Origin: Escherichia coli
GTDB lineage: Bacteria; Pseudomonadota; Gammaproteobacteria; Enterobacterales; Enterobacteriaceae
Assembly: GCF_024502345.1 (NCBI RefSeq)
Contig: NZ_JALDNN010000001.1
Reading direction: 5' to 3' (one strand)
Length of the DNA: 64,000 bases
Shown: piece after piece, positions 1-61,236 of the stretch
How the letters are laid out: each line of letters starts with the position of its first letter
How positions within the stretch are numbered: the first letter of the stretch is position 1
Made by a program: the position numbers and the translations under genes
The notes under the pieces: generated by a model
Database searches by the model: none
The model's input: the letters and a program-made list of their open reading frames with translations, nothing else
Told to the model about the DNA's origin: nothing

Positions 1-644
1 TGACCGTGCATCGCAAGCTGAGCAATCAGCTTGGAGACGTGCTGAGGTGTGAAGAACTCCCCTCCAGACTTACCGGCATTTGCCGCATAGTTAGAAATCA
101 GGAACTCGTAGGCATCACCAAACAGGTCAATCTGGTGCTCGTTAAAATTCCCCAGGTTAAGCCCTTCAACGCCTTTCAGAACGGCGGCAAGACGGCTGTT
201 TTTGTCTTTAACTGTGTTACCCAGTCGATTGCTGGTCGTATCGAAATCGGCGAACAGGCCTTTGATGTCGGCCTCGGACGGATAGCCGTAGGCAGAGCTT
301 TCTATAGCGACGAAGATACTATTTAAATCAGCATTCAGCCTGTCGTTGGTGTTCGCTTTAGCGGCAACGTTGCAGAACAGCTGGCTCGGGTAGATGAAAT
401 AGCCTTTAGTCCTGATGGCATCGTCTTTGATGTCATCGGTAATGATGCTGTCATCAAGTGCTGCATAATGTATGCTCTCATCCCCTGCTTCCATGTAGCT
501 GGAAAAATTCTCACTGATGAAGCGGTAGAAAAGTGCACCGAGTACATACTGTTTAAAATCCCATCCATCTACTGAGCCCCTGACATCATTGGCAATGGCC
601 CAGATTTGACGGTGTAGCTCTGCACGCTGTTGAAGGCTTGTCAT
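1..644 (-). CDS. hsdM: Type I R-M DNA methyltransferase subunit HsdM, 5' portion only (gene runs off the window start)
   Basis: Minus-strand frame reads [15 protein letters not shown]...; near-identical at nucleotide level to 58480..59122 of the complete hsdM; start codon (cat on + strand) at 642..644. Confidence 0.85.
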
Positions 645-847
645 TTTGTATCCTGTTGTATGATTCTTAAGTACTGTTATTGGCCCGATTTTATCGCAAT
701 TTCATATGGATGACAGGCTTTGTATGTCATGCGTTGCACTGAGAGTTCGTTTGCCCGGTTGTGTAGCCAACACTCTTTCAGTCAGGCCAGTAGAAACGTT
801 GCGCTGACGATAAATACTGAAGCCCCAATACCATCGGGGCTGAACGT

Positions 848-2725
848 TCAGTCGGTGAGAATTTCTTCATCCGTATCCATTGTGGATGGTGATGAATCTA
901 TTTTTGTTGTAAGAAATACCCGATTCAGTAGTCTTTGCTTCAGGGCGTTTCTTCGCTCATTGTAGAATTCCGGGAAGTGACTGAACTCAATATTTTCATC
1001 TGAAACTAACAGCATTGATGGCGAATAGTTGTTTGATGGCTGAGATAGCCATTGTTTCAGGGAAGTATCCTGTTTACTTATATTCTGAGAGTGATTCAGT
1101 AAATGAAGATTCGGTATGGTGTCCCAGTATTCCGGATTTTCATAAAAGCTGAGCTTCTCAGGTGAATTCGCAATATAATCTAGTTTTTCAAGATATTTCT
1201 TTGAAAAATGATTTCTTGGGTGAAGGTGATCAATATGAAATACCTCGGTTGGATTCATTTCAGGGAACAGAAGATGCAATAGTGCGCGGCAACGACCTTC
1301 GCCATATCTGATATTGAGAAGGCTTTCGATGTATTCGTCGTCAAATCTGAGGTCTTTATTCGAGCCTTTATATCTGTCAATAATCTTTTCAAGAGGAAAG
1401 TGAATATCTGAAAGACTATTTTTCATTACCTCTCTGATACTCGTGAGTAGCGCATCTGCCTGGCTTCCAAAGATCCCTTTCAGAAGTACCATGTAAAACC
1501 ACTGGCTAATTACTGAGCGTTCATTGTGGTTTTTATTCAGGAGGTTAATCGTTGTATATAATGGATGTCCACTGGTTTGCTTTTTGTAAAGCCAGTAGAC
1601 CACAGGAATGACTGCATTTTTAGATATCAAAGACTGTGGATTGATGCCGAATCGCCTGATAAGAATAAAGGTCTCCTTGATACAGGATTTTATTTCAGAC
1701 CATTGTTGTTGTATCTTACCGACCTCCTCTGAAGTGAAGTTTTTTACTTTGAACCGGACGTCAGAGTCAATAAGCATCAGGCTGGTTTTTAAGAACCAGT
1801 CTCTTTCAATATAAAAACCCATTTCATTATTCTGATAAATGTTTTTTGTCAGTTCATCCAGTTCTCTTCTGAAATCCCCCTGCCAGTGCGCTACCGCTAT
1901 TGACATCAGTAAGTCTGAAAACTCAAGTTTTGTCCCCCCGCTGTTCGTGCGGATGAAAACATCCAGCACATGATCAATGTCCTGACTGCTCTCATTGAAG
2001 TAGTGGATAAGATTCTCAGTTCTTATCTTGGTATAAAGTTTAAGCAGAGTTTTTCTGGAAAATTCACTGGAAATGAGATCTCTTTTTTCAAGTTCTGGTA
2101 CGACAACGTTAAATAAAATATCATCAGGCGAATCATGTTGCTCGTATTTGAATATTTCGTGCAGGCAGAACCAGTGATGTTTGTTGTCTGTAAGTGAATC
2201 AGCGTATTGCTTGTCGGTCAGGAACCTGAAGTTATACTTCATCATGAGTTCGTCGTCTGACTTAAGTGGCGCGGTTAAATCGACGTAAAGCTTTCTGGGC
2301 GGCAGGATGCGATCATCCTGTGCCGAAGGCCACCACATCCGGGGCTGTTTATACGCATACGTTCCACACAATCCAATATATAATGATGTGAGACGCTGCT
2401 GACCATCAATCACCGCTTTGAAATCATGAAATCCAGCATTTGTTGCTACGCAGGGGTTTTCTTCATTAAATCGCTGACAGTATTCTTTCAGGAATTCATA
2501 GAATTTGTAATCATTTTTAATACTGGCACTACGGATATCCCACATCATGAAAGAGTTTATCGGGTAGTCTCGCATGATGGAATCAAACAGCAAACATATC
2601 TGACTGCTGCTCCAGACGAACTTCCTCTGAATTGCAGGCAGAAGATAGTGGCGTAAATTAATTGAATCTATCGCTTGTTTTATCGTTATTGCTTTTTCAT
2701 ACTGGCCAGCCATCATAAACCTCAT
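848..2725 (-). CDS. DUF262/DUF1524 two-domain nuclease, GmrSD-like (putative modification-dependent Type IV restriction enzyme)
   Basis: 625-aa ORF with N-terminal DGQQR motif (DUF262/ParB-like) and C-terminal HIDHLHP His-Me finger motif (DUF1524); sits between hsdM and the WYL-regulator module. Confidence 0.6.
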   Translation of the reverse strand: MRFMMAGQYEKAITIKQAIDSINLRHYLLPAIQRKFVWSSSQICLLFDSIMRDYPINSFMMWDIRSASIKNDYKFYEFLKEYCQRFNEENPCVATNAGFHDFKAVIDGQQRLTSLYIGLCGTYAYKQPRMWWPSAQDDRILPPRKLYVDLTAPLKSDDELMMKYNFRFLTDKQYADSLTDNKHHWFCLHEIFKYEQHDSPDDILFNVVVPELEKRDLISSEFSRKTLLKLYTKIRTENLIHYFNESSQDIDHVLDVFIRTNSGGTKLEFSDLLMSIAVAHWQGDFRRELDELTKNIYQNNEMGFYIERDWFLKTSLMLIDSDVRFKVKNFTSEEVGKIQQQWSEIKSCIKETFILIRRFGINPQSLISKNAVIPVVYWLYKKQTSGHPLYTTINLLNKNHNERSVISQWFYMVLLKGIFGSQADALLTSIREVMKNSLSDIHFPLEKIIDRYKGSNKDLRFDDEYIESLLNIRYGEGRCRALLHLLFPEMNPTEVFHIDHLHPRNHFSKKYLEKLDYIANSPEKLSFYENPEYWDTIPNLHLLNHSQNISKQDTSLKQWLSQPSNNYSPSMLLVSDENIEFSHFPEFYNERRNALKQRLLNRVFLTTKIDSSPSTMDTDEEILTD

Positions 2726-2786
2726 ATGTTATATTAGCTGGCCTATTTTAATTTATTGCGTGTCGGTAGTACAGTCTTTGCACAAA

Positions 2787-3116
2787 CTAATTTATGCAAT
2801 GGAAAAGCTGACGGCTCGGTTTGTGTTTTTCATTCGGGTAGACTCGCATTGCGGATGCACAAAGTGATGAAACCTGTCTTGCTATATTTTTACCGAAGTT
2901 AACAAGAAGGCCGTGCTTTATTTTTTCACCCTCTGCCCTGATGCTGATGATAAAGCTGAACTGATATACGATTACCTCAATGAGGTCATTGCCAAATGTT
3001 ATAATGGCGGCGTTGTTTATTTCATGTTCATAATCCCTCAGGTCAGTGTTAAGTCTTGCTGTTGCATCTACAAGTGCGTATTCTTTATCGATAATCATAA
3101 CTTTCTCACTTATCAT
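2787..3116 (-). CDS. hypothetical protein (109 aa), paralog of 60147..60482
   Basis: ORF co-directional with and 40 bp downstream of the WYL regulator gene; conservative substitutions versus its paralog; no strong SD, and an overlapping + strand ORF exists, so strand assignment is tentative. Confidence 0.45.
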   Translation of the reverse strand: MISEKVMIIDKEYALVDATARLNTDLRDYEHEINNAAIITFGNDLIEVIVYQFSFIISIRAEGEKIKHGLLVNFGKNIARQVSSLCASAMRVYPNEKHKPSRQLFHCIN

Positions 3117-3156
3117 GTTAATGTGATTTAATCATCACTAATAATATGTTGTGATT

Positions 3157-3870
3157 TTAATTACGATTATTCGTCTGTTTACTCCCGTAATGCATTATCT
3201 TATGAATAATGTTCATGTGGGGTAAGGCTTCCATAAAGTCAGACTGTTCAATCAGCGAAATGAGTGTGTTATCGATCTCAAACGTTGTATCCGGTAATAC
3301 CTCAACCAGCCTGATTCGGGACAGGGAAATAACGAACACGCCCGATGACGTACATCCGGCAAGAAACCACTCCGCATGGCTGCAAAGCAGACGGTAGGGA
3401 TGAACGGTATGGCTGACGTTTTCGTCGGTTCTGATACGCACCTGGGTCTGGTTAAGTATGGCGAGCGTCAGTCTGCTGAAATCACCGAAAAGGGTGGGTT
3501 TCTGGCGCGGCTCCGGTAGCATAATCCTGTATGGCGAGGGACGTTCCCCGTCAAGCATCAGGCTCAGTAGTTTGGCATCCATCGCGGGTAACAGACGGTC
3601 AAGATGCAGCAACCTCGCCAGTATCTTCATATCCCGTTCCGTGCGGCGACGAAAGTAATGTGAGGCAAGCTGATACACGCCGTTGCTCTGTTCAATATCA
3701 AGGTAGGTCAGACGGACGTTGAAATCCCGTCGCAGCGTTCGCGTCGTCACTCCAAATTCTTCTGCCAGCGTCCCGATATGCAGCTTTTCACCCTGAAACA
3801 AACGGCTCAGGATGATGGAAAGGCGGGTTGCCAGTCTGTCATGTTCGTTTTCTTGTGTTATCAGCGTCAT
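3157..3870 (-). CDS. HTH-WYL domain transcriptional regulator (YfjR/BrxR-like architecture)
   Basis: 237 aa; N-terminal HTH (LAEEFGVTTRTLRRDF) and central W-x-L-type motif (HAEWFLAG); differs from paralog 60523..61236 at about 3 residues. Confidence 0.6.
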   Translation of the reverse strand: MTLITQENEHDRLATRLSIILSRLFQGEKLHIGTLAEEFGVTTRTLRRDFNVRLTYLDIEQSNGVYQLASHYFRRRTERDMKILARLLHLDRLLPAMDAKLLSLMLDGERPSPYRIMLPEPRQKPTLFGDFSRLTLAILNQTQVRIRTDENVSHTVHPYRLLCSHAEWFLAGCTSSGVFVISLSRIRLVEVLPDTTFEIDNTLISLIEQSDFMEALPHMNIIHKIMHYGSKQTNNRN

Positions 3871-3972
3871 ACATCATTTCCGAATTTAGCCGGGAAATGA
3901 TGCCAGCAGTAGCGGACAGGATTTGTCCGCCCTCTGAAGTTTTTTAAAGTCTGAATACCTTAAATGTAAGTG

Positions 3973-4288
3973 CTAAACGTCAGTATTCTCAGGTGAATAA
4001 AGATGCTTCTGGCGCATGTAGGCAATAAAAATGCAGGATGGTAGCGTCACCCGGTATGCGGGACCGGCTAAATCAATCAGCAGCCAGAGAGAACTGAGCA
4101 CCCAGCCCACGGGACCGGCAAAAGCGCCCATGGTACGCGTCAGCATGGCATTTCCTGCAACGGTCAGCCCTCTGCCTAACAGGGCTTTCGCCACACCATT
4201 TGTGACAACAAGTGCCATCTGATAGGCCGCAAACCCGGATGTTTTAATCCCCGCCTGGATTGCCATGGTCAGCAGCTCCGGCGTGGGA
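3973..4288 (-). pseudogene. 3' fragment of the 249-aa module protein (paralog of 61339..62088), truncated at a recombination junction
   Basis: Nucleotide homology to 61339..61660 ends abruptly near 4288; only the C-terminal ~100 codons remain. Confidence 0.6.
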
Positions 4289-4289
4289 T

Positions 4290-4562
4290 TGCTGTATCGC
4301 AGACGATACCGAGCAGGAGATACCAGCCATCATCAAGTGCGGTGACGTATTCCGGGTTAGCCAGTGCCACTGCCAGCAGCGGGTCTTCGGGGAGTGTGTC
4401 ATCGTGGTTGAGATGCCAGAGCAGGGTTCCCGTTTCGTTCCAGAAGGCGGTAAACAGGTCGATATCATCGACAGGGCCAAGGATTTCATTGCTGAGGGCC
4501 ACCAGTGCGGAGGCGGGCAGGTTGAGAAGGGGAAGACTGGTGGGAGTCGTGAGTTTAAACAT
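4290..4562 (-). pseudogene. 5' fragment of an unidentified gene fused to the junction at ~4288
   Basis: Start ATG at 4562 (MFKLTTPTSLPLLNLPASALVALSNEILGPVDD...); reading frame runs into the junction and ends in non-homologous sequence. Confidence 0.3.
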
Positions 4563-5081
4563 GATTATCTCCATAAGTAATTGATTCATATTGATAATAT
4601 GTTTTCAAATGACTTTTAGTTACATTTTTTTTACGTTGTTTGCTTATTTTGGATTATGTCCTTAAATTTAGTAGTGGGCTGGCGTTAAATCCCGTTTTTT
4701 TTCCGATTTGCAGCATTTTGTAAGCAAATTAGCATGAGCTGTTTTAACTGAAAATGAGAGAAGGCTTGCGCACAATTGCTATTGATTTTCTTACTTATTT
4801 TCTCAATCACAAAACGCCTTAAATAGTTCAAAAAACAATCAACACCCCATAATCGATATTATTTATGGGGAGAAACGACGTTTAAGCCTGAAAGTGGGGG
4901 AGTGGCACTTTCAGGAGATTAAGGAGGCAAACAGGCCTCTTTAACGCGTGTTTTTCTCACCAAAATGTCAGAGTCGGTGATTTGCACTTCAGTATTTCTG
5001 CCAATACTATTCGCTCCATGTGCTGGCCAGCATCTAACTCAATACCCTTAATCTGTATTAATTGAGCGAGATGTATGCATT

Positions 5082-6404
5082 ATGAAACCCGATAGTTCTT
5101 TAAACCAAATAACGCAGACAATGAAACGGAATGATGTTGATTCTGTGGATAGTCGCTTTTTTGAGTCAGCGCAAAACATGAAAACCAGCGTTGACGTTGA
5201 AGATTGCTGCGTTGAAGTGATGGTTCGACATCACAGCCCAAAGAATCAAAGAGAGGCATTCACTAAAGCTTTTTTTGATGAGTGTAAAATCCGTGCAGTA
5301 CAAACTGGCCGGACTATCGAAGCCAGCGATACAAAATGTACCGGGCTTAAGGCTATATTCCACTCATCCGGACGCATTAAGTTTATTGTCCGCAAAAGTA
5401 TTCGCGGAAAGAATGTTTACGTTGCAGTAGGAAGTTACCCTGAATTTTCCATTAATAACGCAAGGGAACATGCCTTTAAAATAATTCAGGAGCTTAAGGC
5501 TTCCGTTGAGACTTATGGTGAGCGTTTTCTTACGCACAGCAAAATAACGTTTAATGAACTTGTGGAACAGTATGTGAAATGCGTACTTAACACGGGCGTT
5601 AAGCGTTCAGCTAACACCGACCTTTCTAAGATCCGTAAATACCTGCGCCCTCTTCTCGGTGACAAAAAGCTGGCAGGTATGACGGAGGCAGATGTTCTGA
5701 GCTATCTACACGATCTCGATCTTAAGCCTGCCACACGCAACCGCCACCTGGCGCTCATTAAAGCGGTCTTTACCTGGGCTATACGCATGGGATACACCAG
5801 CCGCTCTCCGGCGCTTTATATCAAAGCGCTGCCTGAAGTGACGTCAGATCGCCGCGCCATGGATGACTCCCAGCTTCAGCGCTGGATGGAAGTCTGTGAG
5901 TGCTGGCGTAATGGTAAACCCGATCATGAAGCCCTTGCTCTGCTCATGTTCCTTGCCCTGACGGGGCTGCGTCTGGGGGAAACCCGTCACCTTCGTCTTG
6001 AAGATGTGGACTGGAGCCGCAAGGTTATCACCCTTCGCCATACCAAAAACGGCAAACTCCGCCGTGTACCGGTATGTGATAAGGCTTTCGTTCTTCTGAC
6101 AGAACAGCGTCAGCATCTGGGTGATGAAGGCTGGGTATTTCCGGGCAAGGGGACCGACAATCCGGTTTCTGAGCCGCGTCGCCTGCAAAAACGGCTTTGT
6201 GAGGCTGCGGGTATTCCACCGTTCACCATCCATGAGATGCGCCATACCTTTGCGACAAAACTCATTGAGAGCGGGGCCGACATTCACACCGTCAAAGACT
6301 TACTGGGCCACAGCACTATCAAAGTGACGGAGCTTTACTTGCACGCTTCCCCGGCGCGTTACCACGAAGCTGTTAACCGGGCGATGAATGTTTTTCCGGC
6401 CTAA
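5082..6404 (+). CDS. tyrosine-type site-specific recombinase (phage/island integrase)
   Basis: 440 aa; catalytic-domain motifs GLRLGETRHLRLEDVD, HEMRHTFAT and LLGHSTIKVTELYLH (R-H-R-Y signature). Confidence 0.8.
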   Translation: MKPDSSLNQITQTMKRNDVDSVDSRFFESAQNMKTSVDVEDCCVEVMVRHHSPKNQREAFTKAFFDECKIRAVQTGRTIEASDTKCTGLKAIFHSSGRIKFIVRKSIRGKNVYVAVGSYPEFSINNAREHAFKIIQELKASVETYGERFLTHSKITFNELVEQYVKCVLNTGVKRSANTDLSKIRKYLRPLLGDKKLAGMTEADVLSYLHDLDLKPATRNRHLALIKAVFTWAIRMGYTSRSPALYIKALPEVTSDRRAMDDSQLQRWMEVCECWRNGKPDHEALALLMFLALTGLRLGETRHLRLEDVDWSRKVITLRHTKNGKLRRVPVCDKAFVLLTEQRQHLGDEGWVFPGKGTDNPVSEPRRLQKRLCEAAGIPPFTIHEMRHTFATKLIESGADIHTVKDLLGHSTIKVTELYLHASPARYHEAVNRAMNVFPA

Positions 6405-6476
6405 ACAGAATTCCCCCTCAGGCAAGTGAGTTCTGCGCTTTACTGCCTGTGGTTCACATTCAAAAGGAACCTGTAA

Positions 6477-7172
6477 ATGAATAATAAATCAACACCATCC
6501 CCCTTGACTACAACGACCCCCGCTCGTTTTGCCTGCAGGAAATTAAATGCATTTCTGGCTCGTCGTGCTCTTCATATGAAGGTGGTAAGAAAAAACCTGA
6601 ACAAGGCTGCTGCAATCGACATCGATCTCGATGACATTTCTAAGTGCGGATGCCGTGATGGTCTGCCTGAAGGCTTTGTCAATACTGCAAAAGGGCTTTT
6701 CTATTATGAAGGAAAAAAATGGTACCAGTTAAGCTCGACCCCCATTCTCCCTGTCTACAGGCATTATTCTGATTGTAAAACGCGCAATATGGGCGTCGAG
6801 TTGATGACTATCAACCATGCTGGAGAGTTCGCCTGTGCTGATGTCTCATTAAGTGATGCAATGGTAAAACCTGATCACGTCATGGCTTCTCTGGCGGGCA
6901 AAGGTTTTGGTATCTCCCTGACGATAAAGTCTAAAGAGCTTCTGGTGCAATTCTTACAGGTGTGTATGAAGAAATCGCTGGAATTGCCTACTTATCTTGT
7001 CGCAGATTCGATGGGTTTTGTGCCTGGCAACAAAGCATTTCTTCACGGCAGTATACCTATCGCGCAGCACCTTTTGGAATTTGACTATTTGATTCCGGCT
7101 TCCCGTGTTCCACGAGGGCTTGTCGAGTCGGGAACGCTGGATGACTGGAAAACGATGGTACCTGTGAAATGA
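6477..7172 (+). CDS. hypothetical protein, possibly 3'-truncated island gene
   Basis: 231-aa ORF directly downstream of the integrase; its 3' end overlaps an opposite-strand ORF, suggesting a deletion junction. Confidence 0.35.
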   Translation: MNNKSTPSPLTTTTPARFACRKLNAFLARRALHMKVVRKNLNKAAAIDIDLDDISKCGCRDGLPEGFVNTAKGLFYYEGKKWYQLSSTPILPVYRHYSDCKTRNMGVELMTINHAGEFACADVSLSDAMVKPDHVMASLAGKGFGISLTIKSKELLVQFLQVCMKKSLELPTYLVADSMGFVPGNKAFLHGSIPIAQHLLEFDYLIPASRVPRGLVESGTLDDWKTMVPVK

Positions 7173-7468
7173 ATCCATTCTGATTCACCGAAGTCACTGG
7201 TCTGGTGTGACAGCGAGTACAGCCAGGCGTTATCCTTTTCCGTGATATGTGCGGTACTGCAGCGTATGCCGGCAAGGGTTGCAAACGGTGGTAGTGTGCA
7301 GGTTGACTGTTGGTCGGATTCCTCCACCACGCGGAGTGAATAACCGTTTTCAGCGACCTTGTTAATCAGTTCAGTGAGATTAACACCATCGACATCAACG
7401 ACAATTCGCCCCATGTTCAGTGCCTGCACATTAATGCTGTCGGCTTCCAACGTCAGGGCCAGTTTCAT
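7085..7468 (-). CDS. hypothetical small protein downstream of the yfjR-like gene; real extent uncertain
   Basis: ORF starting MKLALTLEADSINVQALNMGRIVVDVDG...; distal part overlaps 6477..7172 on the other strand and is probably not genuine. Confidence 0.3.
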   Translation of the reverse strand: MKLALTLEADSINVQALNMGRIVVDVDGVNLTELINKVAENGYSLRVVEESDQQSTCTLPPFATLAGIRCSTAHITEKDNAWLYSLSHQTSDFGESEWIHFTGTIVFQSSSVPDSTSPRGTREAGIK

Positions 7469-7577
7469 TGTTTCGCCTCCGGATGCTTCCCCTGGGTAAT
7501 GTTATTTACCGTTCTGTAGTTATCGCGGGTCATCAGGCCGGTTGCCCTGCGAGCCCGGAGAATATCAATACTGTTTA

Positions 7578-8228
7578 TTAACTGAGAGCGGGTAAGGACT
7601 GAATAAATCCCGGGTCTTCAACAAGACGACACAGACTGTCGTTACGCCGGAAAGTCTCCTGCAGGGGCTGAACCAGATGGATTTCATCCAGGGAGAATAC
7701 GGCGATATGTCCGTCGTGCTCTGCCACCAGATACCAGGCCTGCTGGTGGATAAGTAACCGGCAGGGAGCCAGCCGCTCACAGCGCTGCCCCTCGGCAATC
7801 AGAGTCACCCGCCTGCGCCCGGTAATGGCCTGAATCAGTCGCCAGAAAGACAATGCGCCTGATGGCGAAGGAGCCGGACTGGCGGGTGCGATTACGCAGG
7901 GAGACTCATCGCACATCAGCAGTGCGTTTACCAGACGACGGTCAAAGCCAGGGAAAAGACCGGCCATCCCGCTGCGGTGGGCAAAGATAAGCACGTCGGG
8001 CACCATCTGCGTCTCACTGCCCGCAGTGCGTAAGCGGTAATATCCGGACTGATACTCCAGGTCCAGATACATCAGCCGCTCACGAAAATCACGCCGCAGC
8101 GTGCGCACCGACACACCAAACTCAGCGGCAAGCTTACGCACACTCAGCGTTTCCCCTGCCACCAGACGGCTGATTATCAGTGACAGCCTGACAGCCAGCC
8201 GGTCATGGCGGCGTTCTGCCTGTGTCAT
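7578..8228 (-). CDS. yfjR: HTH-WYL regulator, YfjR-like (CP4-57-type island)
   Basis: 216 aa; HTH ([16 protein letters not shown]) plus AWYLVA motif; lies downstream of yfjP/yfjQ-like genes in the order recalled for E. coli CP4-57. Confidence 0.7.
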
Positions 8229-8444
8229 GAGACGTTCTCCGTGAAAGTTAACTGACTGAAAATGATGTGATTACTTTAAAGAGGGGGTCGGACAGGGTAT
8301 GGACACCACAGAAACTATTTTTCATTTCTGCAAAAGCCAGAGGCAGCGGGGGTTACAGGCCTTCCCTCGGTGAGTGAGGACCGTCAGCACGGTGCGATGC
8401 GGACAGGTGGTGTCCGATATTAACAAAGCAGCAACATTAAACGG

Positions 8445-9266
8445 TCACTGCAGTTGCGTGAGCAGGGCTTCCGCCATCACCCACAGTGCCCGGTTAAGTT
8501 TCACGTCCCCGTCGATACCGCGAACGGCACGGGTATGTGACCGTCCTCCTTTGGCATTACGGCCACTGAGCCCGCCCTTAATCAGGTTCTCCTGAATACG
8601 CTGGTACGTGGTCCACAGGTCATTGCTCTCATCCTGCCAGCGGCGAGGGGAGAGGATCTGCGATTCAGTCACCGGCTGGTGGTCTTCACCAAAGCGGTAT
8701 GTGAGGGCGGCTTTTGCCAGTGCCTGCTGTGCCGGGGGTGGCAACAGCAACGACTGCATGGCATCCCGTTTCTCCTCCACCCGGTCAAAAATCCCCAGCA
8801 CCTCATACGCGCCTTCAATCACCTGACTCACCACGTCCCCCTTGTGTGGCACCCGCACCTCGCCAAACGACTCACCGCAGACGAGCCCGTTCTGACAAAC
8901 CGCACGAAATAGTCCCGGCAACATCTGATACGAACTAGTGCCATCGTGGGAGTTGAGCAGGATAATTTCTGGTACCTGTTTACCGGTAATCTGCCCCTCA
9001 CGCCGCAGACGCAGCATATGCTTTGTATGTTCACGACGACCGGGGTCACGCACGCGGGTCTGACAGGCAAAGAATGGCTGGAAGCCTTCTCGCTGTAGGC
9101 TGTCGAGCAGGGAGATGGTAGGTATATAGGTATAACGCTCACTGCGGGATTCATGTTTGTCCTCGCTGAATACACTGGGCACCACGCGAAACAGCTCCTC
9201 ACGGGTTAACGGGCGGTCGCGACGGATAAGGTTTGCTGCGCCAAAGCGCGAAGCCAGACGGGTCAT
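8445..9266 (-). CDS. yfjQ: DUF932-family protein, YfjQ-like
   Basis: Start moved to internal ATG (MTRLASRFGAANLIRRDRPL...) which has a GAGGAG SD; sequence closely matches recalled YfjQ. Confidence 0.75.
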   Translation of the reverse strand: MTRLASRFGAANLIRRDRPLTREELFRVVPSVFSEDKHESRSERYTYIPTISLLDSLQREGFQPFFACQTRVRDPGRREHTKHMLRLRREGQITGKQVPEIILLNSHDGTSSYQMLPGLFRAVCQNGLVCGESFGEVRVPHKGDVVSQVIEGAYEVLGIFDRVEEKRDAMQSLLLPPPAQQALAKAALTYRFGEDHQPVTESQILSPRRWQDESNDLWTTYQRIQENLIKGGLSGRNAKGGRSHTRAVRGIDGDVKLNRALWVMAEALLTQLQ

Positions 9267-9357
9267 AAGCAGACTCCTCATAATGGGAAAACAAATAAAA
9301 GAAATCCCCGTCGCATCGGCGACAGGGTTAGGGAAATAACAGGGATGGGTTAAATAC

Positions 9358-10221
9358 TCAGAAGAAGAAATCCCAGACGGCACGGGCCACTGACACCACG
9401 GTGGTGCGCACGGCCTGAATGACGGCCCGCACCGGGGCGGGGATCAGGGGAAAGGCACTGATGCTATCGAGTACAGCACCGACGGTTTCACCAAAATCGC
9501 TACGCGCCTGTTCCCGGACTACCGTCGTGCGAAAGGAAGGCTGGAGTTGCGACACCACCGGGCTGGTGGCCTCACGTGGCAGGCACTTAATCATTCGCTC
9601 GGCCATCACCCGCAGTCCCCACTGAAGACGGACCGACACGGCACACACTGGATGTACGGGCTGGAACAGCTCATGCAGCAGGCAGATTTTGCGGCTGATA
9701 TTCTGCTTCTGCGCCGTGGACAACTGTCCCCCACCGCTGGTAGGTTCGGCCTTATCCGACTGGCTGATAACAAACAGCACCTTATGCCGGTATACCTCTC
9801 CAATCACCTGATGATAAAAATGTTCATCCACCGTCAGCGCCCGGTCATCGGCCTTAATCAGCCACAGTACCAGGTCGAGGCGAGGAAGCTGTTCGCGGTA
9901 CAGCGCAGCATACTCGGTATCGCGAGCACCACTTTCGCCCACGCCGGGCAGATCCATCAGCGTTATATAGCGGTCGCCAACCTGCAGGCGAAAGCGCAGT
10001 GGCTCACGTGTACAGGCCGCCACATCGCTGACCGGTGATACCTCACTGGCAAACAGGGCATTGCAGAGTGAGGATTTACCGGCACCGCTCTTACCCATAA
10101 TGCCGATCACTGGCTCGTAGCGGGTTAACTGATTTATCTGCTGCAATATACGTTCAGACACCCACTGTGGCAGACCAGCGAGCGATTGCTGAAACGGCTT
10201 CAATCCTTCAGAATTGTTCAT
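9358..10221 (-). CDS. yfjP: island-associated GTPase, YfjP/YeeP/YkfA family
   Basis: Walker A GKSGAGKSSLCNALF; start placed at MNNSEGLKPFQQSL with GAGGAG SD. Confidence 0.8.
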   Translation of the reverse strand: MNNSEGLKPFQQSLAGLPQWVSERILQQINQLTRYEPVIGIMGKSGAGKSSLCNALFASEVSPVSDVAACTREPLRFRLQVGDRYITLMDLPGVGESGARDTEYAALYREQLPRLDLVLWLIKADDRALTVDEHFYHQVIGEVYRHKVLFVISQSDKAEPTSGGGQLSTAQKQNISRKICLLHELFQPVHPVCAVSVRLQWGLRVMAERMIKCLPREATSPVVSQLQPSFRTTVVREQARSDFGETVGAVLDSISAFPLIPAPVRAVIQAVRTTVVSVARAVWDFFF

Positions 10222-10327
10222 TACTACTCCTCTGAAAAATAATACAAAAACGGCAGAATCGTGAGATTCCACCGTTAATCTGGTATGTTCAAAGGGATGA
10301 TATATATCTGAAAATTATTAACTTGAT

Positions 10328-12629: not shown

Positions 12630-13024
12630 ACTGTGTTTATCAAATTCCATGCCCTTTTTGCTGCTTAATTTTAAATGACACTCTGATCATGCACCGTGAT
12701 TGAAATAAGTTATAGCCACCCCTTAATCATTTTTTTCAGACGACATTAACTTCGGAGTAAATAATTTAACACAATGAAATATCAAACCGCATCTGGCCTG
12801 AATGTTGAGTATTAATACGTGACGGATTGTTAATATATATCAGTACATAAACCCCAATATTCCAGTAATACACACCTACACAATACACACCAAGCAATTT
12901 AGTCAGCATCACCCAACTAACATCCAACACAAACTCAATAAGCCAGATTTGATACCACCTAATTACCTCAACCATCGCGGGTAAGGTTCCGTCCTGCCCG
13001 ATATTCAGATCACAGGAATCTATT

Positions 13025-13636: not shown

Positions 13637-13941
13637 GGCAAAACAAACTAAGTCTATAAAGATTTTTTCAGCCTGGCTCTAATCGACTGAATCTCAGCAT
13701 ACTCCGCTTTTGAAGCCTTGACACGTCAGTTGTTCTTTCACCTCTGAGTGGCTACTCGCGACTGCCTGCAGGAGACTGATTATGTTATTGACCGCAAAAT
13801 CCATTAACTGACTTTTCGACTTAATCTCCTTAAGTTATGTGAGAAATTTGCCGATATGAAAACATGATCCTCCAGTCGCTACTGACATGCCCTGTCAGTA
13901 GCGACTGGTAATCTCAAGGAAAAATTACAAGGAGAACGCGC

Positions 13942-15133: not shown

Positions 15134-15144
15134 AGGAGAAAATC

Positions 15145-16281: not shown

Positions 16282-16293
16282 GGAGCAGGAACA

Positions 16294-16386: not shown

Positions 16387-16465
16387 CGAACGTAAGTCTG
16401 ATGCGGCGCATTAGCGTCGTATCAGGCAATCAATAATGTCGGATATGAAAAGCGGAAACATATCG

Positions 16466-17764: not shown

Positions 17765-17774
17765 TGCATAAAAA

Positions 17775-18578: not shown

Positions 18579-19773
<1,195 letters not shown>

Positions 19774-53127: not shown

Positions 53128-56100
53128 CTAGAGGTGCCCTCCAACCCCTTTAAATTTTTCGATAAACGCCCCAATTTTCTGGAATACGGTCTGCTTTTTC
53201 GTTTTGTACTGAGGATTCAGCGGACTGAGCTTTGGTAGCGTCTCATTTAGCTCAGTGCCATTTTCGGTAGCATACTCCCGTTTGAGTGATGTGCGGATAT
53301 AGCGCCTTGCAGCCTCTTCATTGAGGTTTTCTTCCTTAATCAACGCCTCTGCTTCCCGTTGCTGTTCACGCTGAGCATAGGTAAAGAATGCATCAATGAT
53401 ACTGGCCTTGTCCGGCATGTCATCAAGGTTAGTTTGCTGAATAAAGTCAACAATCAGACCTTCTTTGGCACGGTTGCCCAGACTTGAGCGGATTAAGCGT
53501 CTGACCTCTTCAGTCAGGGCTTCTTTACCTTTTTTCTCTCTGTTGTGGTCGAAAATCAGGCCAAGGATGTAATCCAGGTTAATTTCCTGCGACTTCAGCA
53601 GGTCAATTTCAAACACCACGTCATCCCAGTCTGTGGTTGATTTATCCCTGTCGTTTGATGCTTTTTCGCGTCGCTGCCAGTCCCGGATATCATTGTATGC
53701 TGAGCGATAGTCCTGAACTTTACGTTCTGCCGGGAGACGAATGGTTTGTAATTCAGCAAATTTTTCATCATCCACATAGTGCTCTGCTTTAAAGGTTTCT
53801 ACCGCTTCCGGGTCACTAATATCAACCTTCTGCAGGGCTTTCAGCGTGGCAAATTCATCATAGTTTTGCAGGATGTTTTCTGCCCGCAGATATTCACCAA
53901 ACAGTTTGACGAAGGCTTTTTTCTCTTTTTCACTGTCGATACTGGCAGGGTCAGGGAAGCGCTGCTCCAGCTCCGAAACAACAGCCATAAAACCTCGTTT
54001 AGCCTCACCGGTTGCCGCATCGGTAAAGCCCTGCATGTACTCTTCGTAGCTTTTTTCCAGCACCACATTCTTGGTGTTTTTGTCGCCAAAAAGTGTGATG
54101 GCATCAATGGTCGGACGCTCCAGGTCCCTGAAAGTCACGATATTGCCGAAGGTTTTGGTTGCATCATAGATACGGTTGGTGCGTGAGAATGCCTGCATCA
54201 GACCGTGATAACGCAGGTTTTTGTCAACGAACAGAGTATTGAGCGTCGGGGCATCAAAGCCGGTTAAGAACATTCCCACCACGATGAGAAGGTCGATATC
54301 CTGATTTTTCACTCGTTGAGCTAAATCGCGGTAGTAGTTCTGGAAGCCGTTACTGTCGGTACTGAAATTGGTTTTAAAGTGGTTGTTATAGTCATCAATG
54401 GCTGAATCCAGGAATTCCTTTGCGCTGCTGTTCATTGCGCTGGTATCAAAGCTTTCGTCAGTAATATCACCAATGGCGCTTTGCTCTTCATTAGCAGCAA
54501 AAGAGAAGATGGTTGCCACACGAAGACGTTTATAGCTGCCAGATTTCTTCTCAGCTTCTTCCTGTAGCATTTTAAATGTCGTGTAATAAGCTTTTGCCGC
54601 GTCCACGCTGCTCACTGCTAACATGGCATTGAAGCCTTTTGCTCCCGGGAAGGTACGATGCGTTTTCTGGCGGAAGTTATTGAGAATGTATTGCGTTATT
54701 TCCTGGATACGCAGTGGGTGCAGAAAGGCCTGCTGGTTTTCAGCCGCGCTGAGTTTTTTCTCGTCTGTTTCCGTTTCAAGGGACTTAAACTGTGGGCGGA
54801 CATCGTTATAGTCCACCTTAAACTTCAGCACTTTTTCATCACGAATCGCATCAGTAATTACGTAAGAATGTAATTCACGCCCGAAGACGCTGGCGGTGGT
54901 TTCTGCCCCCAGTGCATTTTCCGGGAAAATAGGCGTACCGGTAAAACCAAACTGATAAAAGCGTCTGAATTTCTTTTTGAGGTTTTTCTGGGCCTCACCA
55001 AACTGGCTGCGGTGACACTCATCAAAGATAAACACCACCTGCTGCTGATAGACGGGCAGGTCAGCTTCGGCTTTCATCAGGTTATTGAGTTTCTGAATGG
55101 TTGTGACGATAATTTTGTTATCGTCCTTATCCAGGTTTCTTCTGAGGCCAGCTGTATTATCCGAACCATTCACACTGTCCGGAGAGAAGCGCTGATACTC
55201 CTTCATGGTCTGGTAATCGAGGTCTTTCCTGTCGACCACGAAGAAGACTTTATCAATAAAGTCCAGCTCGGTTGCCAGTCGTGCGGCCTTAAAACTGGTC
55301 AGGGTTTTTCCTGACCCTGTGGTATGCCAGATAAACCCGCCGCTTTCGGGTTTTGACCAGTTCTTCGCTTTAAAAGAGCTGTTGATTTTCCAGAGAATGC
55401 GCTCAGTGGCCGCTATCTGATAGGGACGCATGACCAGCAGTGTCTGGCTGCTGTCAAACACGCTGTAATTAAACAGAACATTCAGCAGGGTATGCTTCTG
55501 GAAGAAAGTGGCGGTAAAGTCCTTCAGGTCCTTTATCAGGGTGTTATCCGATTTCGCCCAGTTCATGGTGAAATCAAAGCTGTTTTTATCCCGCTTAGTG
55601 GTACTGGCAAAGTACCGGGTATCAGTCCCGTTGGAAATCACGAAGAGTTGCAGGTATTTAAACAGGGAGTTATCGCTGTTAAAGCTTTCCTTGCTGTAAC
55701 GGTGTATCTGGTTAAAGGCTTCACGAATCGCCACGCCGCGCTTTTTGAGTTCGATTTGCACCAGTGGCAGGCCGTTGACCAGAATGGTGACGTCATAACG
55801 GTTAGCGTGTGAGCCGGTCTGCTCAAACTGCTGAATGACCTGCACCTTATTGCGCAGCAGGTTCTTTTTATCTATCAGATAGATGTTTTCCAGACGACCA
55901 TCATCAAACGTAAAATCACAGATATAGTCGATATGGATTTTACGGGTTTTGTCCAGGCTGCTGTCACTGGGGCTGTCCAGATACTGCTCTGCGAAGCGCC
56001 GCCATTCACTTTCGTTAAACTCCACACCATTAAGACGCTGAAGCTGGTCCCGCACATTCGCCAGCATCGCAGTCGGTGACTTAACGGAGATAAACTCATA

Positions 56101-56244
56101 CCCCTGATTAAGAAGGTCCTGAATCAGCTCCCGCTCAAGGTCCAATTCGCTCTGGTAGCTGTCACCGGTATCCATAACTTTTGTGTATTTATCAAGGACG
56201 ATAAAGTTATTGGATTCAGCAATGGTGTGTGTCTGTTGTGTCAT
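53128..56244 (-). CDS. hsdR: Type I restriction enzyme R subunit (Type IC, EcoR124-like)
   Basis: 1038 aa; Walker A GSGKT, DEAH-box [10 protein letters not shown]-terminus [20 protein letters not shown] resembles recalled EcoR124I HsdR. Confidence 0.9.
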
Positions 56245-56307
56245 GGAGCATCCTGTGCGTCATCTGGCAAAGTCCGGAAGGGTATCAGAAGCATCTTCCG
56301 GCATTCA

Positions 56308-56352
56308 TAAAACCTGATACCGGACGGGTGAGAACAAACCCTGCCGGTATCA
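56308..56352 (-). terminator. stem-loop in the hsdS-hsdR intergenic region (possible hsdMS terminator or regulatory structure)
   Basis: 8-bp inverted repeat GATACCGG...CCGGTATC followed by a T-rich run on the minus strand. Confidence 0.35.
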
Positions 56353-56360
56353 ATGGTCCG

Positions 56361-57569
56361 TCAGTTGCTAGTTGTTTCGTGCTTCGGGAAGCTGAACAAC
56401 AAGTCGCGATAGTACTCGTACTGCTTCTGGCGTAGTTCTATTTCACGGGGTAAGCCTTCGGTGATAGAGCTTGTTAATGTGTCGAATTTATCGAGTATGG
56501 TGACAATCCTAACTTGCTCTGACTTTGAAGGGATTGGTAGTAAAAGGTCCTCCATTTGTTTTTTGGATACGGCAGGAATACCTCCTTTCTGCTGAATACC
56601 CGTTAATTTGGTCTCGGATTGTTTCAGATAGTAATAGACATACATCCAATGCAACTGTTCAGTGCTTCTAACAGAGATGGAATAGCAACTATTGCCTGCC
56701 CAGTAAGGAGTGGAACTCTTATTTACAAATCCTGCATTTGCTCCACGCGCACTCACAATAATCTTATCGCCATCATTGTTGAAGTCTTCGTAGTAACCTG
56801 TAGGAGTCCGCCCTCCGTTGTAGACCGGATAATCTGCGTCAGGATTCTGCTTGTCCTTACGGACAAACGCACCAATTGTAATTATTGCTACTTCCCCCAG
56901 ACTCTTCCACTCAACACTCCCCCCCTCAAAACTCAGCAATTGGTTACGATAGTAATTGTACTGCTTTTTACGCATGGTAAGCTCAGCTGTAAGCTCAGCT
57001 GTAAGAGCAGTAAATTTATCCAGAATTCGGACGATTTCAGACTGGATGGTCAGAGACTTTTCAGGATTTTCCGGGCAAGGAATGGGGGCTTTATATGCTG
57101 AAATCATTTGAAGATTCAGCCCACCACGCCCGCTGTTCCCAGATGATATCTGACGTAGATTATCATACTGGGTTTCCAAAAAGTGGAAAATATAATCTGA
57201 ATTGATCTTCCGCTCATCAAATGTAATGGCTGCAAGTGATTGATTGGTGGTTAATTTAATGCGGGTTCTTGCTACTTTACCACGAGTTTTACCCTGACCT
57301 GCTAATGCCATAACAATGGAATTTTCAGGAACAAATTTAGCACTTGAGTTATTTAATCCATCCTCAGTAATGAATGTCTCAGTTTCTTTGATGGTTTTTA
57401 AATTTACTTCACCTGAACTCATCCAGGGGATAGTTCCATGCTCCCAATATTCTGTTTTTTTAGTATCAGGGGTGCCACCAGAATAAATTTTTTTTGCAAC
57501 CTTACCGAGAGGGAACCACTCAACCTCAATCCCCTCCAGCAGTTTTTCCAGATAATTTAGCTTACTCAT
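56361..57569 (-). CDS. hsdS: Type I R-M specificity subunit (Type IC), two TAEL repeats in the central conserved region
   Basis: 402 aa; conserved central ...[27 protein letters not shown]... and C-terminal ...[37 protein letters not shown]; 4-bp overlap with hsdM. Confidence 0.85.
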
Positions 57570-59122
57570 GCCTGCGCCTCGTAGCCTTCAATTTCTGCCA
57601 CAATCGCATCAATGTCTTTGCGTAACTGGTCGATTTTGCTGACCGTGGTTTTAAGCTCAACATTCAGTTCGGTGATATCGACGATTTCACGGGTATCTTT
57701 TGCTTCGACGTAGCTACTGACAGACAGATTGTAGTCATTACCAGCAACAGTCTCTAATGGCACCGTTTTCGCCAGATGGTCAGTATCTGCCTTACTGTTG
57801 AACACATCCATAATCTGCTTAATATGACCATCAGTCAGGATATTGTTATTGGTTTCTTTCTTAAACAACCCGCTGGCGTCAATAAACTGAACGCGGGTAT
57901 CTGTTTTGTGCTTGGACAACACTAGTATGTTAACGGCAATGGTGGTGCCGAAGAACAGATTTGGTGCCAGAGAAATCACCGTTTCAACATAGTTGTTGTC
58001 GACCAGGTACTGGCGGATTTTCTGCTCTGCTCCGCCACGGTAGAAAATACCGGGGAAGCAAACTATTGCTGCACGCCCTTTAGCTGACAGGTAGTTTAGT
58101 GCATGTAGCACAAACGCAAAGTCAGCTTTTGATTTCGGGGCCAGTACGCCAGCAGGAGCAAAGCGCTCATCGTTAATCAGGGTCGGATCATCACTACCAA
58201 TCCACTTAACCGAGTACGGTGGGTTAGAAACAATCGCATCGAACGGTTTTTCATCGCCAAAGTGAGGCTCAGTCAGGGTATTCCCCAACCTGATATCAAA
58301 CTTATCGTAGTTGATGTTGTGCAGGAACATATTCATACGCGCCAGGTTAAACGTCGTATGATTTATCTCTTGTCCGAAAAAACCTTCTTCAATGATATGA
58401 TTATCAAAGTGCTTCTTCGCCTGAAGCAGCAGTGAGCCAGAGCCTGCGGCAGGGTCATAGATTTTGTTGACGTGAGTCTGACCATGCATCGCAAGCTGAG
58501 CAATCAGCTTAGAGACGTGCTGTGGTGTGAAGAACTCCCCGCCAGACTTACCGGCATTCGCCGCATAGTTTGAAATCAGGAACTCGTAGGCATCACCGAA
58601 AAGGTCAATCTGGTGCTCATTAAAATCCCCGAGCTTTAGCCCCTCAACGCCTTTCAGAACGGCAGCGAGGCGGCTGTTTTTGTCTTTGACGGTGTTACCC
58701 AGTCGATTGCTGGTCGTATCGAAATCGGCAAACAGACCTTTGATGTCGGCCTCAGACGGATAGCCGTAGGCAGAGCTTTCAATAGCGACGAAGATACTGT
58801 TTAAATCAGCATTCAGCCTGTCGTTGGTGTTCGCTTTAGCGGCAACGTTGCAGAACAGCTGGCTCGGATAGATGAAATAGCCTTTAGTCCTGATGGCATC
58901 ATCTTTGATGTCATCGGTAATGATGCTGTCATCAAGTGCTGCATAATGTATGCTCTCATCCCCTGCTTCCATGTAGCTGGAAAAATTCTCACTGATGAAG
59001 CGGTAGAAAAGGGCACCGAGTACATACTGTTTAAAATCCCATCCATCTACTGAGCCCCTGACATCATTGGCAATGGCCCAGATTTGACGGTGTAGTTCTG
59101 CACGTTGTTGAAGACTGGTCAT
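57566..59122 (-). CDS. hsdM: Type I R-M N6-adenine DNA methyltransferase subunit
   Basis: 518 aa; catalytic NPPY motif (SNPPYS) and AdoMet-binding region [10 protein letters not shown]. Confidence 0.9.
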
Positions 59123-59710
59123 TTTTATCCTGTTATCGATTCTTGGTTTCGGCTATTGCTGCGATTTTATCGCAATTTTACTTCTTTGACAGGTTTGAGT
59201 GATGCCTGATAGCCTCCCCAATGAAGGTTAAAATGGTTAATGAAATGTACAGAGAATCAATCGGATATGCTGTTTCGATTTCTGGAGCATCATTAGCGGT
59301 GTTTAGGGGCAGTTCATTACATTTCTGACCTTGTATAGATATGCCGTGATGAAATAAACGTTCACAGCCATCATCTGATCGGTGTGCAACAAAGGCGTCA
59401 TTCATTAAATACGCAGAGAGCCTGACTTATTGCGTCAACGGGTGAGTTACAATGTTGAATCTGGTAACGCCAAAACTGTGTAATTATCTACGCTAAATCA
59501 TTTCTGGTTAGCGTGACCGACGCCGGCGGTCTTAAGATGTACAATTCTTACTGTCTCCGAATGAATTTTATTTATTCAAACAGACTTGGGTGATATTATT
59601 ATCAAGTGAAAATGCCTGTTACCTACCTTGATGATATATACAGTGTTTTTACAGATGAATTTATATGTTTGTAATCAATGCGTGAGTTTGATGTTTTTAA
59701 GGTTAGTTAA

Positions 59711-60031
59711 ATGAAACAGCTATTGGATTTTATAATTGGAAGTTGTGTGGATAACAGAACCAAATTTCAGTTGCTTGCAGTTTGTTATCCAAAATGTAAG
59801 GATGATGAAGTGATGTTGATTTTGCGCTGGAGGGTAGCTGATTTGTATGCGCATGAACTGGAAGTTCAGAATTATCTTTTTAGAGAGCTGGAAGGTATCA
59901 TAGAGAAAATCACGGGCCTGCCTGAAACCTATTTTGTATCAAGCTATAAATCACTATTGACCGATGATTTTAGAGAACTCACAGCAGCGGGGGTTGATGT
60001 TTGTAAGTTTATTATGGAAAACAAAGGTTAG
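59711..60031 (+). CDS. hypothetical small protein (106 aa) in the variable slot between hsdM and the WYL module
   Basis: AT-rich ORF with AAGG SD 8 nt upstream; divergent from hsdM; occupies the position held by the GmrSD-like gene in the left-hand locus. Confidence 0.4.
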   Translation: MKQLLDFIIGSCVDNRTKFQLLAVCYPKCKDDEVMLILRWRVADLYAHELEVQNYLFRELEGIIEKITGLPETYFVSSYKSLLTDDFRELTAAGVDVCKFIMENKG

Positions 60032-60146
60032 TTGGATAAGAACCAACACATTTTCAGGTTCTGTTCTGGCTGAGGAACCTGAATATTCAATCAATGTGTT
60101 AGTTCTATTTTTGATGGTTAGATTTAAATGTGATTCTTTTGCGGTG

Positions 60147-60482
60147 TTATACTGCTGTTATGCATCTAAAAAGCTGACGGCTTTGTTTATGTTTTATGTT
60201 CGGATAGATTCTCATCGCAGCTGCACAGAGAGGTGAAACCTGCCTTGCTATATTTTTACCAAAGTTAACAAGAAGACCATGCTTGATCTTTTCACTATTC
60301 GTTCTGACTTTGATGACAAAGCTGAACTGATATACGATTACCTCAATGAGGTCATTGCCAAATGTTATACTGGCAGCGTTGTTTATTTCATGTTCATAAT
60401 TCCTCAGGTCAGTGTTAAGTCTTGCTGTTGCATCTACAAGTGCGTATTCTTTATCGATAATCATAACTTTCTCACTTATCAT
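60147..60482 (-). CDS. hypothetical protein (111 aa), paralog of 2787..3116
   Basis: Last gene of the module operon; conservative substitutions versus its paralog. Confidence 0.45.
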   Translation of the reverse strand: MISEKVMIIDKEYALVDATARLNTDLRNYEHEINNAASITFGNDLIEVIVYQFSFVIKVRTNSEKIKHGLLVNFGKNIARQVSPLCAAAMRIYPNIKHKQSRQLFRCITAV

Positions 60483-60522
60483 GTTAATGTGATTTAATCA
60501 TCACTAATAATATGTTGTGATT

Positions 60523-61236
60523 TTAATTGCGATTATTCGGTTGTTTTGCCCCGTAATGCATTATCTGATGAATAATGTTCATGTGGGGTAAGGCTTCCAT
60601 AAAGTCAGACTGTTCAATCAGCGAAATGAGTGTGTTATCGATCTCAAACGTTGTATCCGGTAATACCTCAACCAGCCTGATTCGGGACAGGGAAATAACG
60701 AACACGCCCGATGACGTACATCCGGCAAGAAACCACTCCGCATGGCTGCAAAGCAGACGGTAGGGATGAACGGTATGGCTGACGTTTTCGTCGGTTCTGA
60801 TACGCACCTGGGTCTGGTTAAGTATGGCGAGCGTCAGTCTGCTGAAATCACCGAAAAGGGTGGGTTTCTGGCGCGGCTCCGGTAGCATAATCCTGTATGG
60901 CGAGGGACGTTCCCCGTCAAGCATCAGGCTCAGTAGTTTGGCATCCATCGCGGGTAACAGACGGTCAAGATGCAGCAACCTCGCCAGTATCTTCATATCC
61001 CGTTCCGTGCGGCGACGAAAGTAATGTGAGGCAAGCTGATACACGCCGTTGCTCTGTTCAATATCAAGGTAGGTCAGACGGACGTTGAAATCCCGTCGCA
61101 GCGTTCGCGTCGTCACTCCAAATTCTTCTGCCAGCGTCCCGATATGCAGCTTTTCACCCTGAAACAAACGGCTCAGGATGATGGAAAGGCGGGTTGCCAG
61201 TCTGTCATGTTCGTTTTCTTGTGTTATCAGCGTCAT
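60523..61236 (-). CDS. HTH-WYL domain transcriptional regulator (paralog of 3157..3870)
   Basis: 237 aa; same motifs as the left-hand copy. Confidence 0.6.
   Translation of the reverse strand: MTLITQENEHDRLATRLSIILSRLFQGEKLHIGTLAEEFGVTTRTLRRDFNVRLTYLDIEQSNGVYQLASHYFRRRTERDMKILARLLHLDRLLPAMDAKLLSLMLDGERPSPYRIMLPEPRQKPTLFGDFSRLTLAILNQTQVRIRTDENVSHTVHPYRLLCSHAEWFLAGCTSSGVFVISLSRIRLVEVLPDTTFEIDNTLISLIEQSDFMEALPHMNIIHQIMHYGAKQPNNRN

Follow-up and report, generated by a model that had tools for sequence, protein, structure and literature searches.

Gene content of the locus

The stretch of DNA analysed here (64,000 nt, hereafter the window) comes from an Escherichia coli contig (NZ_JALDNN010000001.1, assembly GCF_024502345.1) and carries, close to its first letters and on the reverse strand, a gene that we call brxU-like. 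In the direction of transcription this gene is preceded by a helix-turn-helix (HTH)-WYL regulator and a small open reading frame (ORF), and it is followed by the 5' part of hsdM from a Type I restriction-modification (RM) system (Table 1). The initial annotation had described its product as a GmrSD-like nuclease with an N-terminal DUF262 and a C-terminal DUF1524 domain beside this hsdM, and the features it named were all found in place: the DGQQR motif lies at nt 2393-2407, HIDHLHP (aa 497-503) at nt 1217-1237 of the same ORF, and hsdM is on the same strand with its ATG at nt 644, 203 nt after the stop codon of the brxU-like gene.

A Shine-Dalgarno sequence (GAGG) sits within codons 2-3 of the ORF, and most database entries for the protein begin at M4 or M5 with a length of 621-622 aa; therefore, the real start is probably one of these two methionines, and the product would be shorter than the 625 aa of the full ORF, whose numbering is used throughout. 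In comparison to three E. coli alleles, the gene has a ratio of nonsynonymous to synonymous substitution rates (dN/dS) of 0.11-0.13 and contains no internal stops, and alleles of 97-99% identity are recorded from Citrobacter, Enterobacter, Cronobacter and Serratia. The pattern of substitutions points to purifying selection, and the encoded protein is very probably active.

Assignment to the BrxU branch

A sequence search of the PDB returned BrxU (7P9K/7P9M) as the sole match (7p9k_A, E 1.7e-99), with residues 9-600 of the query being co-linear with residues 2-575 of the 587 residues of BrxU at 37% identity. The same picture emerges from the PADLOC library, where the HEC-05 model PDLC04151 matches the protein over its full length (E 1.8e-230, 765 bits) and is likewise the best model for BrxU itself (770 bits). 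According to Payne et al. (2024), HEC-05 equals BrxU, the homologue tested there being 99.2% identical. NCBIfam holds no model for the brxU-like protein, the small ORF or the HTH-WYL regulator. Among 1.84 billion cluster representatives searched, 775 relatives were found at E<=1e-30, and the family alignment used below combines the query with 65 full-length representatives of 31-60% identity (66 members); the profile built on this family finds BrxU at E 5.8e-207.

At the structural level, an AlphaFold2 model based on the 66-member alignment reached a predicted local distance difference test (pLDDT) score of 91.5 and a predicted template modelling (pTM) score of 0.85 for the monomer, with residues 606-625 as the only disordered part (pLDDT<50). 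Foldseek placed the BrxU chains first among PDB entries (E 1.5e-35, probability 1.0). The global template modelling (TM) score of the model to the BrxU crystal protomer is only about 0.5, apparently due to a differing relative orientation of the domains; this fits the report that AlphaFold fails to replicate the position of the BrxU DUF262 domain in the intertwined crystal dimer (Payne et al., 2024).

For the N-terminal half, the Pfam search proposed in the initial annotation returned a significant DUF262 match (Table 1), and a member-by-member scan found GmrSD_N in 66 of the 66 family members. Q33, S49, D107-G-Q-Q-R111 and F257/R259/N261 are invariant in this part of the alignment. For the C-terminal half, the query domain aligns with the DUF1524 domain of BrxU in the PDB sequence search, and the AlphaFold2 model shows the arrangement of a His-Me finger: a strand (496-500) ends in H500, N539 precedes a second strand (540-544) and a helix (545-551) bears N548. 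D499, H500 and N539 are invariant among the 66 members, and N548 and K551 are conserved in >=90%. The assignment of this domain thus rests on the homology to BrxU, on family members matching PF07510 and on the structure model.

The mutational analysis of BrxU (Picton et al., 2021) allows a comparison at the level of single residues. S42A, S42D, Q101A, R102A, D474A and H475A abolish both defence and DNA cleavage, and so does the double mutant R38A/S42D, whereas Q35A, R38A and N485A are neutral and N519A and E528A weaken the defence in vivo only. All five essential positions are identical in the query, with S42, Q101, R102, D474 and H475 corresponding to S49, Q110, R111, D499 and H500. Among the neutral positions, R38 corresponds to L45 and N485 to K510.

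At every level of sequence and structure used for the assignment, the protein falls into the GmrSD family and, within it, into the BrxU/HEC-05 branch. The proposed likeness to GmrSD, BrxU and SspE thus holds for the BrxU branch of GmrSD, on the strength of 7p9k_A, HEC-05 and Foldseek, and is weakest for SspE. We consider it highly likely that the product of 848..2725 is a BrxU-type enzyme that cuts cytosine-modified phage DNA.

An optional cassette in a duplicated island

Further along the window lies another, paralogous copy of the module without the brxU-like gene, and its Type IC operon is complete (hsdR/hsdS/hsdM; Table 1). In blastn alignments, positions 1-720 correspond to 58479-59196 at 92.9% identity and 2792-4296 to 60158-61662 at 97.0%, and between 721-2791 and the copy-2 slot nothing is alignable; no DUF262 remnant was found in copy 2 by tblastn. 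The junctions are sharp, with homology stopping at the stop codon of the small ORF and restarting about 75 nt 5' of the hsdM ATG. Since this paralogous copy without the gene lies in the same window, the brxU-like gene forms an optional cassette. Together with its distribution in other genomes (see below), this makes the gene an autonomous cargo module; neither the Type I system nor the small ORF or the regulator has it as a dedicated subunit. Two paralogous copies in one genome, one with and one without the cassette, provide a clean natural experiment. There are no terminal repeats at the cassette ends and no tRNA genes within the window; therefore, recombination between homologous backbone flanks is a likelier origin of the cassette than transposition.

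Table 1. Coordinates of the brxU-like gene, its cassette, the flanking genes and the second island copy within the window
Feature	Position	Strand	Basis or remark
brxU-like gene	848..2725	-	Single 625-aa ORF, ATG start, intact (ORF listing)
DUF262/GmrSD_N NTPase domain, aa 16-276	1897..2680	-	Pfam PF03235 (GmrSD_N), E 2e-33
DUF262 motifs	QR aa 33-34; S49; DGQQR aa 107-111; FxxxN aa 257-261		Sequence
DUF1524-type HNH / His-Me finger core, aa 496-551	1072..1240	-	AlphaFold2 secondary structure and conservation
Hairpin, 9 bp, G+C-rich, then poor U-tract	821..841	-	Just 3' of the brxU-like stop, inside the cassette
hsdM 5' part (Type IC, EcoR124 family)	1..644	-	Cut by window edge
Sigma-70-like promoter match CTGTCA-17-TAAAAT	688..716	-	Consensus scan (9/12), upstream of hsdM
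Cassette with brxU-like gene, 2,071 bp	721..2791	.	Absent from paralogous copy
Small ORF, 109 aa (often annotated 103-104 aa)	2787..3116	-	Backbone, 61 nt upstream of the brxU-like gene
HTH-WYL regulator (BrxR/YafY-like class)	3157..3870	-	Pfam HTH_DeoR 6e-6, WYL 4.6e-4; PADLOC WYL 2.4e-15
Paralogous module without brxU-like gene	53128..61236 (through 62088 with DUF3944/YaaW)	-	ORFs, PADLOC
hsdR copy 2	53128-56244	-	PADLOC REase_I
hsdS copy 2	56361-57569	-	PADLOC Specificity_I
hsdM copy 2	57566-59122	-	EcoR124-like
Alternative slot content, 961 bp	59197-60157		Replaces cassette in copy 2
Small ORF copy 2	60147-60482	-	
HTH-WYL regulator copy 2	60523-61236	-	
Intact DUF3944/YaaW copy 2	61339-62088		

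The visible part of the copy-1 hsdM comprises 214 codons without a stop, and 212 of these 214 residues are identical to the complete HsdM encoded in copy 2. Since the latter matches the EcoR124 HsdM subunit (7bst_D) at 1089 bits, the neighbouring system is, judged by sequence, a Type IC system. The near identity of the visible N-terminal parts also means that the two Type IC systems could have M and R subunits in common, with HsdS as their sole difference. A full hsdM-hsdS-hsdR operon is present in the E. coli relatives of copy 1. The promoter-like match upstream of hsdM lies within the approximately 75 nt conserved 5' of hsdM in both island copies and is a consensus match only. The hairpin behind the brxU-like stop codon has a folding energy of -20.9 kcal/mol over a 71-nt context (z = -1.4 against shuffles, hence not significantly more stable than these), was not called by the terminator scan and might possibly act as a weak terminator.

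Among 5426 complete E. coli genomes, the cassette occurs at >=80% of its length in 114 (about 2%), with one plasmid-borne case next to an hsd remnant. In the E. coli strains NCTC 13148 and PSJ-22, the order on the reverse strand is HTH regulator, small hypothetical protein, DUF262, hsdM, hsdS and hsdR, and their island also contains two integrases and a DUF927 protein; in NCTC 13148 it is located between gsp/yghD genes and a tRNA-Phe gene. E. coli AREA_C483 matches the copy-2 slot at 99.9% identity. In Edwardsiella, the same backbone continues from the small ORF directly into hsdMSR without a brxU-like gene, and in Hafnia other cargo follows the small ORF, including a PDC-M26A-like AAA protein. 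In the Hafnia alvei island (L015 10666-15887) we counted three reverse-strand cargo genes of 177, 838 and 611 aa and no Type I system; PDC-M26A, a PADLOC candidate, is matched by the 838-aa product (E 7e-24). This cargo suggests that the slot is a general hotspot for defence cargo. The copy-2 slot itself carries a 106-aa ORF on the forward strand (59711-60031) without PADLOC or PHROGs match, which is 97% identical to a Hafnia alvei ORF in the corresponding place of the island (L015 9435-9755); the annotation of AREA_C483 lists it as hypothetical.

Homologues of the brxU-like protein also occur in other surroundings: one of 66% identity is flanked by pglX and pglZ within a Type I bacteriophage exclusion (BREX) locus and one of 47% identity stands alone among housekeeping genes; here, the gene is found at the 5' flank of hsdMSR and not between the genes of a system. 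BrxU-type genes thus move as independent modules among BREX loci, Type I RM loci and places where they stand alone.

The small ORF has 87% amino acid identity to its copy-2 paralogue, also occurs in islands without the brxU-like gene and forms 77 clusters, all from Enterobacterales, with no match in Pfam, PADLOC, PHROG or NCBIfam. Members of this ORFan family (103-111 aa) were seen in Escherichia, Citrobacter, Enterobacter, Hafnia, Edwardsiella, Pantoea, Pectobacterium and Morganella. None of the solved BrxR structures is matched by the HTH-WYL regulator at the level of sequence. As both are backbone genes with and without the cassette, we rejected the small ORF and the regulator as dedicated partners of the brxU-like protein; the ORFan might act together with the regulator. 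The backbone order is integrase - DUF927 - integrase - ... - DUF2787 - LRAT - DeoR - DUF3944 - HTH-WYL regulator - ORFan, and the copy-2 region (53128-64000) likewise holds DeoR, an LRAT/C40 peptidase and DUF2787. A bolder reading, which we regard as improbable, takes the locus as a slot with interchangeable cargo (Type IC RM, the brxU cassette or the PDC-M26A-like AAA system) in a widespread Enterobacterales integrative island, with the WYL regulator and the ORFan as common control or sensing unit; coupled to it, and equally improbable, is the idea that the BrxU-clade protein could differ here in modification specificity or in sensitivity to the phage protein IPI*.

Other features of the window

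A mobile-element segment (5082-11254) adjoins the first island copy. It includes genes for a tyrosine integrase at 5082-6404 and for another HTH-WYL regulator at 7578-8228, which shares 36% identity with the first. Next come a DUF932-like protein (8445-9383) and a YeeP-like GTPase (9358-10272), and then an ORF of 308 aa with low GC content (10328-11254) and without PADLOC match. Transposases of the IS5 family occupy 11605-12573 and 18725-19705, and another copy lies near 42265; an IS30 transposase is located at 47658-48809, and exact 300-bp repeats at 27320 and 50015. In addition, appC (14177-15133) lacks its first approximately 196 codons and an etk/wzc-type tyrosine kinase is reduced to a C-terminal fragment (17884-18555). 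The regions 11605-19705 and 47658-48809 are mosaics driven by insertion sequences.

Next to the hsdR gene of copy 2, six tandem 48-nt repeats (52563-52946; repeated unit KDDRLRTIATFDGKTL) form a 114-aa ORF on the reverse strand (52568-52912), the equivalent of which in NCTC 13148, just downstream of hsdR, is annotated as '5-fold beta-flower protein'. The tau-hemB segment of the window is 100% identical to several E. coli strains. Within it, flanked by the tau operon and hemB, a 574-aa ORF (39289-41013, reverse strand) exceeds the curated cut-off of the NCBIfam model OlsF, a bifunctional ornithine-lipid synthase, with 806 bits compared to 620; E. coli records annotate it only as lysophospholipid acyltransferase family protein. 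At least 80% of the surrounding segment (35500-42400) is found in only 17 of the 5426 complete E. coli genomes.

Weight of the evidence and alternative explanations

Several observations weigh against the assignment as a functional BrxU-type enzyme acting beside a Type I system. One concerns the nuclease domain: GmrSD_C (PF07510) gave no match on the query even at E<=10, and thus the DUF1524 match expected in the initial annotation, which had named the lack of DUF262/DUF1524 matches as the finding that would speak against it, is missing in Pfam for the query alone, with DUF262 being significant. Since PF07510 is matched by 12 of the 66 relatives at E<=1e-3 and by 29 of the 66 at E<=0.1, the missing match points to a divergent C-terminal domain in this clade, that is a problem of sensitivity, and not to the absence of the domain. 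At the residue level, the two BrxU positions whose mutation weakens the defence in vivo only are changed, N519 to I549 and E528 to Q558; the family-conserved N548 and W559 are kept beside them, and N548 aligns with BrxU N518. With an identity to BrxU of only 37%, the substrate range could differ as well. Concerning the context, hsdS and hsdR of copy 1 lie beyond the window edge, leaving only the 5' part of hsdM visible, and scans for promoters and terminators returned only consensus-level matches, with the promoters at or below the expectation from shuffled sequences. Finally, copy 1 shows signs of decay: its DUF3944/YaaW gene is split into two ORFs (3973-4589, reverse strand), of which only the C-terminal 97 aa (3973-4266) match the intact gene of copy 2, and approximately 2.7 kb with genes for a hypothetical protein, DeoR, C40/LRAT and DUF2787 are missing in comparison to E. 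coli relatives such as NCTC 13148.

This damage to the island, together with the low identity and the two changed positions of partial importance, would fit a decaying or inactive passenger gene, or a BrxU homologue directed at another class of substrate, such as modified adenine or guanine or cues other than DNA modification. However, the reading frame is uninterrupted, none of the essential residues has been lost, dN/dS is about 0.12 and alleles of 97-99% identity exist in several genera of the Enterobacterales, which makes this explanation very unlikely. We judge it just as unlikely that the protein has no function of its own and works solely as an obligate accessory subunit, be it for the Type IC system or for the small ORF/WYL pair. 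Homologues are found inside BREX, alone or on a plasmid with a mere hsd remnant, the identical backbone with hsdMSR exists without the gene in copy 2, AREA_C483 and Edwardsiella, and cloned BrxU/HEC-05 alone confers defence according to published work, even though a subunit role would account for the shared strand, the tight spacing to the small ORF and to hsdM, and the order regulator - small ORF - DUF262 - hsdMSR in at least 64 E. coli genomes. An SspE-like enzyme, which would sense phosphorothioate on host DNA, nick foreign DNA and partner a phosphorothioate-modification system, shares the two-domain architecture and finds an echo in a weak PADLOC match to SspE (E 4.2e-5, aa 104-117 only) and in the second rank of the Foldseek search (E 3.4e-4). 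The likeness is nevertheless confined to the DGQQR loop (TM 0.18, 10% identity), the family profile reaches SspE at E 0.0059 as opposed to 5.8e-207 for BrxU, and no ssp or dnd genes adjoin the gene or occur in the loci of its relatives. With the PADLOC, profile and Foldseek matches all being marginal, we rejected the SspE assignment and give it practically no credence.

Proposed mechanism

BrxU defends on its own by nucleoside triphosphate (NTP)-dependent cleavage of DNA containing 5-methylcytosine (5mC), 5-hydroxymethylcytosine (5hmC), glucosyl-hmC or arabinosyl-hmC (PMC8565348, PMC12409352, PMC13390438). Any common NTP and several metals support the cleavage. ATP binding turns the interlocked dimer into monomers, hydrolysis and re-association are required before the HNH domain cuts, and the T4 protein IPI* inhibits the enzyme partially. 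By homology, we assign the same cycle to the BrxU-type protein described here, and with lower confidence the exact substrate range. Its ParB/Srx-like DUF262 domain would bind and hydrolyse the nucleotide via QR, S49 and DGQQR, and nucleotide binding would release monomers from an intertwined homodimer. Repeated hydrolysis and re-association would then precede the cut by the DUF1524 nuclease with D499/H500, N539 and N548. The predicted targets are DNAs with 5mC, 5hmC, glucosyl- or arabinosyl-hmC, as found in T-even-like phages.

In the context of the island, this would amount to a layered restriction, in which the Type I system deals with unmodified foreign DNA and the cassette covers phages that escape via hypermodification of cytosine; co-transcription, regulation and synergy of the brxU-like gene with the Type I system are likewise putative. 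For BrxU, complementarity of this kind with BREX has been demonstrated, and it was also proposed for GmrSD-like genes within Type I loci, where these genes are often located according to published observations. If so, the host is predicted to resist T-even-like, cytosine-hypermodified phages, which is relevant to the choice of phages in therapy.

Comparison with known systems

The closest known system is BrxU from the Escherichia fergusonii plasmid pEFER (7P9K/7P9M), with which the protein agrees in length class, full co-linearity, best PADLOC model and top fold match, as well as in the DUF262 NTPase motifs and the DH...N...N pattern of the His-Me finger. Both genes adjoin a system targeting unmodified DNA and lie downstream of a WYL-type regulator. 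In contrast to BrxU, which is embedded in BREX, the gene described here flanks the 5' end of a Type IC RM operon, and its product differs by its overall identity of 37%, by the exchanges at R38, N485, N519 and E528 (to L, K, I and Q) and by about 20 extra disordered residues at the C-terminus. Eco94GmrSD and EcoCT GmrSD, which carry out modification-dependent restriction of T-even phages, have the same single-chain layout of DUF262, linker and DUF1524. The prototype GmrSD is very distant in sequence: even BrxU shares only 13% identity with it. Pfam GmrSD_C misses the query. SspE likewise combines a DUF262-type NTPase with a C-terminal nuclease and forms intertwined dimers, but it senses phosphorothioate, belongs to SspABCD and shows only marginal similarity.

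With respect to genomic context, TgvAB of Vibrio cholerae VPI-2 and RloF-type DUF262 genes are comparable as GmrSD-family genes within a Type I RM cluster, for which complementary coverage of modified phages was proposed. TgvAB, however, requires two proteins encoded between hsd genes, whereas we find a single protein upstream of hsdM and, by tblastn, no second DUF262 gene within the window. That GmrSD-like genes accompany Type I RM loci and that WYL regulators play a role at defence islands is already described; the locus adds an uncharacterised orthologue, present in several genera of the Enterobacterales, to a well-understood class and opens up no new mechanism. What our analysis adds to these known systems is the placement in the BrxU branch, the caveat concerning DUF1524, the probable start codon, the evidence for selection and the polymorphism of the cassette as seen from two paralogous islands.

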